DNA of 64,000 nt, taken from assembly GCA_963745035.1 (NCBI GenBank), contig CAVUVW010000020.1:1-64000 (forward strand). Direction: 5' to 3'. Under the pieces are notes generated by a model that saw only the letters and a list, made by a program, of their open reading frames with translations, searched no databases and had not been told where the DNA came from. This stretch comes from an uncultured delta proteobacterium. Its GTDB lineage: Bacteria > Desulfobacterota > Binatia > UBA9968. A program made the position numbers and the translations under genes. Shown here in pieces: positions 37,306-44,368 of the stretch; within the stretch, counting starts at the first letter, position 1; each line of letters starts with the position of its first letter.

Positions 37306-37397
37306 TGGCGGAGAGGGAGGGATTCGAACCCTCGGTACGGGGTTAACCGCACACACGATTTCCAGTCGTGCACCTTCAACCGCTCGGTCACCTCTCC
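37306..37397 (-). tRNA. tRNA-Ser(GGA)
   Basis: GGAGAGG/CCTCTCC acceptor stem, CTGGAAA anticodon loop, long variable arm, GTTCGAATC, encoded CCA. Confidence 0.96.
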
Positions 37398-37692
37398 CGC
37401 TAGAAAAATCAAGACACTTGCGGACTCTACCAATCCTTCACGGCGGGCAATGTCTCCAAAATGTCTCCACGCGAGATTTTTGCGCCGTTTTAGCTGCCGA
37501 TTCGCGGACTTCAACAAGCTATCACAGGAAATTTTCAGGGGCAAAGACTAAACGGAAAATTGATCGAGCGATGCACGATTGAGAATCGTGCTGCCGTTTC
37601 CAAGTATGCCGAAGAACGAAAGTTTTTGCAGATGTCTCCACAATGTCTCCACGTAGTGAGCGCACGTTGAACGGGCTTGGGATCGAGACAGC

Positions 37693-38168
37693 ATGAACGA
37701 GAACGGCAATTCCCGAGGGACAAAGCCACCGCCAGTGCCCGAACACGGCGAACGGCGAGCCTTGAAGCATGGGCTTACCACGATGAAGAAAGCGCTTTCC
37801 GTACTCGGTAACAGGGCGTTAGACGGTAGATTCAAGGTCAGCAAGGAATTGGCGAAATGGCGCCGTGATTTGATCGAAGACTTGGGCGGTGAGGAAAACA
37901 TCAGCGTGCAGCAACGGACGTTCGCCGACCTATGCGTCAAAAACAAGCTGCTGCTCGACTCGATTGACAGTTGGCTCTTAACGCAGAAATCGCTGGTAGT
38001 CGCTAGGAGAAAAACCCTGCTCCCGGCTGTCCTGCAAAGACAACACTAGCCGATGGACTCGCCAAGTATCTCAACATGCTCGGCCTTGAGCGCCGGCAGA
38101 AAGTAAAAACCATCACCGACCTGCTCAACGGCCAAGACGTGGAGCCGGAGGCCGAGACCCGCCAATGA
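37693..38168 (+). CDS. Phage/satellite-type hypothetical protein, possibly small-terminase-like (indel near 38045)
   Basis: LKHGL..LDGR..DLGG..SVQQR..LGLERR; function is inferred. Confidence 0.55.
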
Positions 38169-38611
38169 GCGCGTTAACGGAGAAAACGCATCCTGGGCAG
38201 ATTGGGACGGGAGCTGTATGGAACGGTTACATGTGGCAAAACGGAGAGCTTTTCCAAGTAGATAGTTCCGCTCCGGCACCTCACGTACACCGCCTGGCAG
38301 GTTGCACACACAAGCGCACTTTCAAGCGCTCTTTTCCGGAGAAATATGAGTGCTCCTTGGGTGTGGCTGGAAAGTCGAGAATATTCCGATCTTTCAAGCG
38401 GCCTTTGGATTCCGTCTTTACAATTGCTCGGGCATCTACTTTTCATATCGGCCTTCAGTTTTTGTACGCTCGTACTTTCTCCGCAATCGCGGGGGCAATC
38501 CTTTCTCATAAAGCCGGTGACGAATCAAGCCCACGTTGGAGCACACACGAATGGACAGCGTTAACGGCTAGCACGCTGAAACTGAGCATTGACCCATGCC
38601 GAGCCCGCAGA

Positions 38612-38827
38612 ATGCGCCACGACTGCGTTAACGCAGTTAAATGGACACTCTCAGCCGTGCGGTAATCCGTTCTGTTCAGTGCTCGTCAACATCAAGTCAC
38701 CGCGCGGCAAGCATGGGCGGTATTGCTCCGACCACTGCCGGATGACGGCTACGCTTTGAAGCGGGCCAAGGCGCTACTCAACCGCGTGGGCATCATCCGC
38801 TTTCACGAGCTGTTGGACAGGCTATGA
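38612..38827 (+). pseudogene. Small Cys-rich mobile-element ORF (CGNPFC..RYCSDHCR..NRVGIIRFH), with indels
   Basis: Homologous copies at 55706-55870 and 57024-57080. Confidence 0.55.
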
Positions 38828-39031
38828 GACGCTTGAGTCACACTGACACAGGCCTTCGCGGTGCAGGCACAGGCATTCGAACCAAGGAACACCTGGCGCA
38901 TGGAGCTGTTTCTCCACTACTTCAAAACCCTTGCAAACTCCGCTGGCGCGAGAGTACAAGAAGCCACATCCCATGCCGGTTCAATGAACCCGTGAGTTAT
39001 CGTCAATTGACTTAGTCAAACGAGATTCCGC

Positions 39032-42000: not shown

Positions 42001-42428
42001 TCCGTTAGGGAATGGCGATGGTTTACCGCGATTGCGCCGCCTCACTGGCAGATGCTCATAAAAAGATCGGGCAGACCGTCGAAGGGCTCAAGTGTGGTGA
42101 CCGAAGAATTGGTCACGGTAAAAAGCACTGAATGTCGTTGCTACGAAGCTGAACTGCATCGAATTAAAGGGGAATTGCTGTTGACACAGACTGCCACGGA
42201 CGAGAACCAGGCCGAAGCATGCTTCCGAGACGCGTTGGAAGTTGCGCGCGGCAAAGCGCCAAGTCGTTGGAACTGCGCGCAGCGATGAGCCTGGGCCGGC
42301 TATGGCAGAGACAGGAAAAAAAGGCCGAAGCGCAAGAATTACTCGCTGAGGTTTATGGCTGGTTCACCGAAGGGTTCGACACCGCCGATTTGCGAGAGGC
42401 AAAGGTGTTACTCGATGAGTTGGCATAA
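39032..42428 (+). CDS. Double zinc ribbon + class III nucleotide cyclase + AAA ATPase + TPR-like protein (many indels in the 3' half)
   Basis: CPRC..FCGEC, GERKQVTVLFAD, GDGIMALFGAP, GEAGVGKSRL, FEDLHW, FKHALTHEVAY, WFTEGFDT. Confidence 0.88.
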
Positions 42429-42481
42429 CCAATTGCGGGTGCGGCAAAACAACAACGTAAGACTTTTCAAAGGAGGTACTT

Positions 42482-43222
42482 ATGGCTTTATCTAAACGGC
42501 TGACAGCGGAGTTTCTTGGAACCTTGTGGTTAGTGCTCGGAGGGTGCGGAAGCGCGGTCTTAGCGGCTGCTTTCCCGAACCTTGGAATTGGCCTCCACGG
42601 AGTCTCAGTTGCCTTCGGTCTGACTGTCCTAACGATGGCATACGCCGTCGGCCACATCTCCGGTTGCCATCTCAACCCGGCCGTTTCCTTCGGCTTGTGG
42701 GCAGGTAAGCGCTTCTCCAGCGCCGACTTGATTCCATACATCATAGCGCAAGTCCTCGGCGCGATTGCCGGCGCGTTTGTAATCTATCTCATCGCCACGG
42801 GTAAACCCGGCTTCGATGTCGTTCAAAGCGGATTTGCTGCCAACGGCTATGAAGCCCATTCTCCGGGTGGGTATTCCCTCTTTGCCGCGCTCGTTTGCGA
42901 GATTGTAATGACGTATATGTTTTTGATTATTATCCTGGGTGCCACTCACGGGCGAGCGCCGGTGGGGTTTGCGGGGATTGCCATTGGTCTTGCGTTGACT
43001 CTCATCCATTTGATCAGCATTCCTGTCACCAACACCTCGGTTAATCCGGCCAGGAGTACGGGCCCGGCAATTTTCGTCGGTGGCTGGGCGCTATCTCAGC
43101 TTTGGCTCTTCTGGGTGGCACCGATTATCGGCGCTCTCCTCGCAGGGTGGACATACCTTTGGCTCAGTGAAGAGGAGCCATCAAAGAGAGTTCCAGTTGA
43201 AGGAGATCCACCACGGGGCTAA
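42482..43222 (+). CDS. aqpZ: Aquaporin Z
   Basis: [19 protein letters not shown]. Confidence 0.95.
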
Positions 43223-43329
43223 GAGACCTGCTAAATCGAGATGACGGATCACGTCGAAGAAAACTTGATGTGATCGTTTCAAATGTCTCAGGAAGTTCGG
43301 TAGTGTGAGTTCCGCCGTGACTGCAAATA

Positions 43330-43600
43330 CGTGTGGTAATTGAACGCCGGCACAGCCGTTCCCTTGATTCGAGCCATCATAAAAGCAATGCCCACTCCGC
43401 CGAAAAAAATAGTCTCCCACACGGTTTGAGGCATCCTTTGCGAGTCTGTTACTGGCTGACGGCGTTCCGGTGGCGGAGGTCTCTGCTCTACTTGGCCACA
43501 AAGATGCGTACGTAACGTGGAAGGTGTACACGCATTTCGCGAAAAAAGAGAGCACCGCGAGTCAGGAGTTGGAGTTGAACGTCTCCAGCGATGTCTCCAT
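43330..43600 (+). pseudogene. Tyrosine integrase C-terminal remnant
   Basis: PHGLRH..ASLLLADGVPVAEVSALLGHKDAYVTWKVYTH. Confidence 0.8.
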
Positions 43601-44368
43601 CGCGTCAGATTGTGTGAGCTTATGTGAGATGGGCGGAAGCGAAAAAGGCTTGATTTGTTAGCTTATTGAAACGAGACAAGCCTAAAAAAGACGTAGCCCC
43701 AGAATTTCCAGTCGTGCACCTTCAACCGCTCGGTCACCTCTCCCGCTCCGGCAATCTTTTGGACTATCGCCCGTGGTTTTGAACCTAACATGCGGCGAGT
43801 GATTTTCTACAAATTGAACCCGAAATCCGAAGCTGTCTGTGATTTGTCCGAGCGGAACGCGATCGCTGATGATCCACGAAAATCGTTGCCAGGTGGCGCC
43901 GGTTGCCGGCTGCGCGCGAACTTGTAGCCGCACACCGGGACTTCACGTTCACGACTCCTGGATCGTGCCCCACGTGTGCCGAGCCAAGCCGCGACCGTGA
44001 AATCCGTGTTGAAACGAAGAATCGCAATGCCGAAGAACTGTCCAAACCGAGGGAATTCTTCCCGCGCGTGTAATTGTTTTTTACGCTTTCGGATAAAAGC
44101 CCGCAGCCTTCACCCGATCTCAATAAAGCGCTGATTAATCGGCGCATTTCGTGGAGCAAACTGGAGCGCACTCTCCTTACCCGATTCTTTTGTCAATAAA
44201 CTTTACGGATGCGGAGCCGGGATGACCAGCATTTCCCTCGTAACTCCATAATTAAGCGGTGATTACATTTCGTGGCACTTTGATTGCTGCGTTTGTCCAC
44301 CGAAGCTTTCTCGGTAAACTCTTTTGTAAACCGCAGATTGTTCAAACTACATCGCAAAGCGAGTTTAC

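Follow-up and report, generated by a model that had tools for sequence, protein, structure and literature searches.

A 64,000-nucleotide stretch of the genome of an uncultured delta proteobacterium (assembly GCA_963745035.1, contig CAVUVW010000020.1, positions 1 to 64,000; hereafter the window) contains a 6.3 kb island that lies between two copies of a direct repeat, upstream of an intact gene for tRNA-Ser(GGA). In the canonical polarity, an element integrated in a tRNA gene carries the 3' half of that gene and the host promoter is left in place; in the flipped polarity, the 5' half is carried instead. The island is very probably the decayed, flipped remnant of a site-specific element with a tyrosine integrase, in which the tRNA gene was rebuilt with the 5' half of the element.

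The intact tRNA-Ser(GGA) gene is at 37306..37397 on the minus strand (ARAGORN and Rfam, 58.9 bits; anticodon at position 35). No other GGA serine tRNA is among the 47 tRNAs that ARAGORN lists for the assembly, and the gene is thus single-copy at an assembly completeness of 92.6%. A repeat search of the window identified an exact direct repeat of 44 nt, one copy of which is within and just 5' of the intact gene (37358..37401, minus strand), while the other, the displaced host 5' fragment of the gene, is at 43704..43747 (minus strand). Each copy comprises 4 nt of upstream sequence (37401-37398 at the intact gene) followed by tRNA nt 1-40, the last of which is the first base beyond the 7-nt anticodon loop (nt 33-39). 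The first-pass annotation had described a repeat from 4 nt 5' of the mature end to just past the anticodon loop, with the island upstream of the intact gene; the exact match and the ARAGORN and Rfam coordinates confirm both. When the 7.43-Mb assembly was searched by pattern with up to 3 mismatches, only these two copies were found, and a reversed control returned none. G+C falls from about 0.63 to 0.52-0.57 across the island, and all of its genes are oriented opposite to the tRNA gene. Both junctions are bridged by contigs from two metagenome DNA runs, X1 (37372-38199, 43412-43733 and 43718-44391) and X2 (37369-38037 and 43740-44700), one of which may be the source run of the window itself. 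No joint skipping the island was present in these contigs, although rare variants are dropped in contigs and its absence is not thereby implied.

The ancestral flank was sought by comparison with related genomes. The region upstream of tRNA-Ser(GGA) was readable in 21 genomes of the genus, the window included; G001, G003, G004 and G016 had no usable locus. The gene order in the genus is Ser(TGA) ... Ser(GCT), Arg(ACG), about 3 kb, Ser(CGA), a variable spacer, Ser(GGA), ffs and dnaX. The spacer between Ser(CGA) and Ser(GGA) ranges from 125 nt (in G005, an unpublished genome) to 14 kb, and is therefore an insertion hot spot. A promoter-like block (TTTGTAGAAAA, about 15-20 nt, TGnTAGnnT) is located 40-50 nt 5' of tRNA-Ser(GGA) in 12 of the 21 genomes (G002, G005, G008, G009, G012, G014, G015, G017, G020, G021, G023 and G024). 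In the window, this block (43813-43782, minus strand) faces the displaced fragment and not the intact gene: the flank of the fragment (43748..43830, minus strand) holds TTTGTAGAAAA at 43813-43803 and TGTTAGGTT at 43790-43782. The same block is also present at the fragment flank in G050, which belongs to another genus. A conserved host open reading frame (ORF) of 52 codons (MTLIPWEDIW...; 44498..44656, plus strand) belongs to the spacer that ancestrally separated the two serine tRNA genes. It lies 555-720 nt 5' of tRNA-Ser(GGA) in six relatives (G012, G014, G015, G017, G021 and G024), and 755-889 nt upstream of the displaced fragment in the window. Its nucleotide identity is about 80% across at least six genomes of the genus. 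The native block and the host ORF at the flank of the 43704 fragment therefore show that this flank is ancestral, and that the fragment and its flank represent the original 5' end of the locus. The first-pass annotation had named this point as the one on which relatives could overturn its reading, and the block in 12 genomes and the ORF in six agree with it.

A remnant of a tyrosine integrase, corresponding to approximately the last 75 codons, was found at 43354..43658 on the plus strand. It is interrupted by a frameshift and an in-frame stop, and the catalytic motifs HGLRH (frameshifted), LLGH and VYTH of the C-terminal part of lambda-type integrases are readable at 43354-43540. The N-terminal part, about 290 codons, is missing from the island. 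The remnant is 71% identical over 56 amino acids to the integrase of G050, and the full catalytic domain is present in the orthologs from G050 and G092; in the G092 ortholog, the SAM-like and central domains are also preceded by about 55 residues, a region that the island in the window does not retain. The remnant, 45 nt from the displaced fragment, is oriented towards it; about 130 nt separate the end of the integrase from the core on the fragment side, and the integrase gene converges on the fragment and is not split. After flipped integration, the native promoter block (43748-43830) faces the 3' end of the integrase (43354-43658), an arrangement of convergent transcription that cannot arise in the canonical polarity.

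Tandem 8-mers with conserved spacing occur in both arms of the attachment site, and are putative arm-binding sites for the integrase. The arm that adjoins the tRNA gene (37402..37692) contains two tandem ATGTCTCC pairs, at 37450-37468 and 37632-37650. The first (ATGTCTCC-N3-ATGTCTCC) is 48 nt from the repeat at the intact tRNA and the second is 163 nt beyond it, followed by ORF118 (37693..38049, plus strand), the conserved first gene of the element family. A third pair (ACGTCTCC-N4-ATGTCTCC; 43579..43598, plus strand) is 105 nt before the core repeat at the other end of the island, a position matched in G050, G092 and G014. Tandem ATGTCTCC-N3/4-ATGTCTCC pairs occur four times in the 7.43 Mb of the assembly, three of them at the ends of the island. 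The fourth is at the end of another contig (G000:C26:178678-178788), with 50 nt between it and the 3' end of a tRNA-Arg(CCT) gene that the contig end truncates and that is not among the 47 ARAGORN tRNAs; this is a canonical-polarity junction of a sister element.

The flank that adjoins the intact tRNA gene is also of element type in other members of the genus, 8 of the 21 genomes in all. The arm word is within 130 nt of tRNA-Ser(GGA) in seven (G000, G006, G007, G010, G018, G019 and G022); in the eighth, G013, the flank is homologous to that of the window, with the proximal arm region partly deleted, and G011 is unclear. Homologs of 37402-37692 were found in G018, G019, G022 and G013. In G019 and G022 only about 705 nt remain between a slightly diverged 5' fragment and tRNA-Ser(GGA). 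From these stubs, the element-type flank alone therefore appears to be sufficient for expression of the tRNA.

Relatives of the element share one geometry (integrase stop, arm pair, 105-107 nt, core, 46-50 nt, arm pair) and were found in both polarities. In the flipped polarity, G050 (another genus of the same family) has an integrase end, an arm pair, 107 nt, a tRNA-Ser(GGA) 5' fragment that is 100% identical over nt 1-39, and then the ancestral promoter block. The second flipped case is a 4.2-kb remnant at tRNA-Arg(CCT) in G014 (contig C15), in which the intact tRNA is on the opposite strand and, beyond a frameshifted integrase, there are an arm pair, 107 nt and an exact 42-nt repeat (3 nt upstream and nt 1-39). 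In the canonical polarity, G092 holds an apparently complete member of about 16.3 kb that starts with an intact tRNA-Arg(CCT), 46 nt and an arm pair, and ends with a 364-residue integrase (63% identity to the G050 integrase; Phage_integrase, central and SAM-like domains), then an arm pair, 107 nt and an exact 44-nt repeat (tRNA nt 34 to the 3' end plus 1). The first-pass annotation had recommended a search for intact integrase homologs and their att sites, and the integrase and exact repeat of G092 are such a case, in the same attachment geometry as in the window. A 12.7-kb canonical member in G003 lies between 46-nt repeats and has the same layout with the arm word GGTCAACA; its genes include an ORF118-like gene, a large terminase (phrog_9, E 5.5e-41), a split ATP-dependent ligase, a PrimPol with AAA_25, an HTH_17 protein and a split integrase. 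In G018, an ORF118 homolog and a truncated large terminase adjoin tRNA-Ser(GGA). The fuller relatives are about 13-16 kb long, with an integrase, a primase and a large terminase. No capsid gene was identified in G003, G018 or the island of the window. The three-pair arm layout is kept in G003:C32 (L068 290-459 and 12774-12792) and G100:C452 (L041) with the 8-mer GGTCAACA or AGTCAACA, and comparison of these sequences suggests that arm sites and the integrase N-terminus co-vary.

Contigs of public genomes were also scanned for arm pairs, which gave at least 120 stretches, and the DNA of 80 loci was read. One of the 80 (L077) has tRNA-Ser(GGA) in the flipped geometry. The other 79 showed neither an intact tRNA nor a match to the integrase of the island; tRNA fragments were not tested for. 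Twelve arm-pair loci were viewed by eye, and in three that are labelled Acidobacteriaceae the pair is upstream of a different integrase gene. Integrase homologs also adjoin a 3' fragment of tRNA-Arg(TCG) in G104 and in G059 (unpublished); these were left out of the reasoning here.

In the relatives described above, as in the window, the inner boundary of the repeat is at the anticodon loop, on the side of the integrase, and the repeat extends outward to the tRNA end that lies there; among the relatives the spacing of the arm sites is independent of polarity. A single recombination system would give this pattern if its overlap were the loop and its core the palindromic anticodon stem. The crossover probably occurred within the anticodon loop, judging from the pattern of the repeats and from the general statement in a review (PMC8371274) that anticodon-loop integrases exchange strands there. 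The best explanation for these observations is that the ancestor of the island was a family element of about 13-16 kb, with a lambda-type tyrosine integrase and arm-type sites, a prim-pol/helicase and a large terminase, which would have entered the chromosome by recombination at the tRNA-Ser(GGA) anticodon loop. Its attachment site would have carried the tRNA's 5' part, which starts 4 nt upstream and reaches the anticodon loop, rather than a 3' part as is usual. Integration would then have displaced the host 5' half and native promoter by 6.3 kb, to 43704-43830, and the tRNA gene would have been rebuilt from the 5' half of the element and the 3' half of the host. The first ~290 codons of the integrase were presumably lost later, and erosion or replacement of the interior would have left a broken cyclase-ATPase gene and an aquaporin gene; with the integrase N-terminus lost and the interior eroded, the element would therefore no longer be able to excise.

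A further proposal of the first-pass annotation was that the element must also supply the promoter of the tRNA. The topology requires this: the native block is 6.3 kb away and the island genes are antisense, so that read-through from them cannot serve tRNA-Ser(GGA), and the tRNA must be transcribed from DNA that would be element-derived. The proposal stands to that extent, while the promoter itself was not located by scanning. A candidate -10 is TGGTAGAGT (37432-37424, minus strand), which fits the TGnTAGnnT pattern seen by eye 5' of several other tRNAs of the genome. The small SRP RNA gene, ffs (37144..37258, also given as 37144-37242; minus strand; Rfam), is next downstream, its conserved 5' stem starting 47 nt from the tRNA, with dnaX (35408-37093) behind it. 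Simple scans of the 47-nt spacer found no promoter-like or terminator-like site, and co-transcription of ffs with the tRNA, hence from element-derived DNA, is therefore probable. The fold of the spacer is unremarkable (-22.7 kcal/mol, z-score -0.09). The spacer is 20 nt in G011, and a longer spacer in G014, G019, G021 and G022 holds a conserved TTGAAAC-N17-TACTGTTT block. Contigs from two metatranscriptome runs (X15 and X16) comprise pieces on ffs, the tRNA and scattered conserved bits; 37422-37943 is covered by none of them, which is uninformative on transcription.

Several observations weigh against the proposed origin of the island and of its tRNA promoter. The genomes of the genus are kin, and the tallies of 12 and 8 out of 21 do not represent independent events. 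The island has no intact integrase ORF, and the match of the remnant to PF00589 (E 1e-3, 21.1 bits) is below the cut-off of 27.1 bits; the integrase filter of Islander would therefore reject the island. Chromosomal paralogs exist for the cyclase and aquaporin genes, which were perhaps not part of the original cargo. The two copies of the repeat are identical, and the choice of one of them as that of the element depends on where crossover is assumed to have occurred. The flanks of G018, G019 and G022 do not conserve the candidate TGGTAGAGT. Finally, a simple scan of 37050-38100 found no canonical sigma-70 promoter 5' of the tRNA; a scan of 43300-44400 likewise returned no promoter-like site, and since the rule also misses the conserved ancestral block, such scans are uninformative for this organism.

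The last two of these points, together with the partial deletion of the proximal arm region in G013, would be expected if the element had contributed the 5' half without a dedicated promoter, the tRNA and ffs being weakly transcribed, either from signals that are fortuitous or evolved later or through long read-through from the native promoter, with decoding shared by tRNA-Ser(UGA). This is improbable: the element-type flank is kept in the eight genomes, including the 705-nt remnants of G019 and G022, the flipped element of G014:C15 has TTGACT-N16-TAACTT (read from the sequence) 17 nt 5' of its tRNA, and read-through from the native promoter would need to traverse 6.3 kb, antisense to four genes.

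It is less likely still that the polarity is the reverse, i.e., that 37398-37700 is ancestral, that the fragment at 43704 came from an element on the 43748-49290 side, and that the tRNA keeps its own promoter. The 37398-37700 flank is indeed common to seven or eight genomes of the genus, and 43748-49290 is also low in G+C. However, the flank of the fragment holds the block of 12 genomes and the conserved host ORF at the expected distance, whereas 37398-37700 holds element arm repeats and adjoins ORF118, both of which elsewhere adjoin tRNA-Arg(CCT) in clearly bounded elements; moreover, in G019 and G022 the displaced 5' fragment is about 705 nt upstream of this same flank. That the repeat is a by-product of segmental duplication, illegitimate recombination or misassembly that copied the tRNA's 5' half would fit an island without a working integrase and with host-like genes that have chromosomal paralogs in its middle, but is largely refuted and very unlikely, given that the repeat ends exactly at the anticodon loop, is flanked by the integrase remnant and arm-type repeats, recurs as the same junction in G050 and L077, is spanned at both junctions by contigs of two DNA runs, and keeps the same spacing in relatives with exact repeats.

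Integration in flipped polarity has precedents. The first-pass annotation had also held that most elements that target tRNA genes carry the 3' part, and this agrees with Table 1 of Islander (PMC4383910), in which 3760 of 3919 islands have a 3' tDNA fragment and 159 a 5' fragment; islands with a 5' fragment are thus a catalogued minority there, and the filters given in that source explicitly permit a 5' fragment upstream of the tRNA. The island in the window has the organization described for the 5'-fragment islands of Islander and TIGER, i.e., an intact tRNA, a co-oriented 5' fragment upstream of it, the island between them, a tyrosine integrase, and an attachment site centred on the anticodon. 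The intact tRNA (37306-37397) and its cognate fragment (43704-43747) are on one replicon, both on the minus strand, with the fragment upstream of this minus-strand gene, and the distance of 6346 bp from repeat start to repeat start is within the 2-200 kb range of Islander. Unlike the islands catalogued there, its integrase is a remnant of about 75 codons that is lost to the integrase filter.

A second parallel is with archaea. According to the review cited above (PMC8371274), the pTN3-like integrases of Thermococcales use the 5' half of a tRNA as attB and the tRNA is expressed from the integrase promoter, an arrangement that the review describes as seldom encountered in bacteria. As in these elements, the 5' half is targeted in the window (4 nt upstream and nt 1-40), in G050 (tRNA-Ser(GGA) nt 1-39) and in G014:C15 (tRNA-Arg nt 1-39), and the rebuilt tRNA would depend on element DNA. 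However, the host of the window is a bacterium, and pTN3-like integrases are described in that source as the suicidal type, with the attachment site inside the integrase gene, which is split by integration, and with their promoter driving the tRNA, whereas the integrase in the window is unsplit and at the far end. The island is therefore not pTN3-like, as its integrase is unsplit and lies away from the rebuilt tRNA, on the side of the fragment. A third likeness is to the canonical islands at tRNA-Arg(CCT) (G092:C102, G003:C32, G100:C452 and the G000:C26 end), with which it shares the gene order from ORF118 to the integrase, two arm pairs on one side and one on the other, distances of 105-107 and 46-50 nt to the core, and a repeat boundary at the loop. 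In those islands the tRNA points the other way, the 3' half is carried, and the host promoter is left in place.

The cargo of the island is broken. ORF118 has a homolog of 62% identity in G018 and matched nothing in Pfam or PHROG; that it is a small terminase is a guess from the G003 relative, in which the large terminase is downstream of it. Paralogs of 50-57% identity are present elsewhere in the genome (C13:979905, C21:268995, C26:77021 and C6:10207). The degenerate stretch at 38050..38930 is related to DNA beside these paralogs, with up to 96% identity to C13:980237-980724, and the module of ORF118 and this type of DNA is multi-copy and may undergo recombination between its copies. It is followed by a broken gene for a protein with a double zinc ribbon, an adenylate/guanylate cyclase domain and an AAA_16 ATPase (39032..42288, plus strand; at least four frames), with paralogs of about 75% identity on C13, and by an intact aquaporin gene of the MIP family (42482..43222, plus strand; PF00230, E 5.5e-51). 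No large terminase or primase was present among the annotated genes of the island.

A second decayed, tRNA-associated island (Island 2; 48867-49290 and 43748-49290) is adjacent. Unlike the first, it is canonical: the C-terminal remnant of its integrase (48867..49144, plus strand), 84% identical over 55 amino acids to an intact integrase that G024 has next to this tRNA, adjoins the 3' end of an intact tRNA-Ser(CGA) (49291..49382). A displaced tRNA-Ser(CGA) fragment, from the anticodon loop to the 3' end, is present in G024, G017, G014 and G009; the distal repeat of Island 2 was not found in the window by BLAST or by alignment to the spacers of relatives. Island 2 contains a PAS histidine kinase (47279..48442) and a response regulator (48446..48820). 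Just upstream of tRNA-Ser(CGA), a C-terminal fragment of an ATP-dependent DNA ligase (49480-49803, plus strand; PF04679, E 2e-14) may be a trace of yet another element; the element of G003 also has a split ATP-dependent ligase.

The island itself is a dead remnant and belongs to a class that is described but rare. What may be new is the presence of both polarities among close relatives within a single bacterial element family, in one instance at one and the same tRNA: tRNA-Arg(CCT) is used in the canonical polarity in G092, G003 and G100 and in the flipped polarity in G014:C15. A literature search found no description of polarity flipping within one bacterial integrase family, although it did not cover key primary papers and absence is unproven. 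The family would have reached tRNA-Ser(GGA) in the flipped polarity only, perhaps owing to a resemblance between the complement of its stem-loop (TTTCCAG-TCGTG) and the forward stem-loop of tRNA-Arg(CCT) (TTCCTAA-TCCTG). Taken together, these observations raise the tentative idea, which we consider somewhat more likely to be wrong than right, that the anticodon stem-loop is a symmetric core on which the family can sit in either polarity, and that flipped insertion leads to host dependence and a possible switch.

If this were true, a single-copy tRNA and an ffs without its own promoter would depend on element DNA, and the arm next to the tRNA could not be lost after decay of the integrase; this would account for the presence of the arm in 8 of the 21 genomes, in two of them as 705-nt stubs. 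A strong host tRNA promoter would also fire into the 3' end of the integrase only when the element is integrated, a possible built-in switch. Mirror-image integration of this kind is the exception to the rule that the host promoter stays in charge at tRNA islands, and the locus displays side by side a displaced native promoter and 5' half, their replacement from the element, and a canonical island at the neighbouring tRNA. For annotation, pipelines that require an integrase gene miss decayed islands with a 5' fragment. The comparative picture of the relatives is more interesting than the island itself: with both polarities among close relatives, the family offers a natural system for asking by what route integrases switch target and whether replacing the promoter of an essential unit of tRNA and SRP RNA locks the DNA of an element into a lineage.

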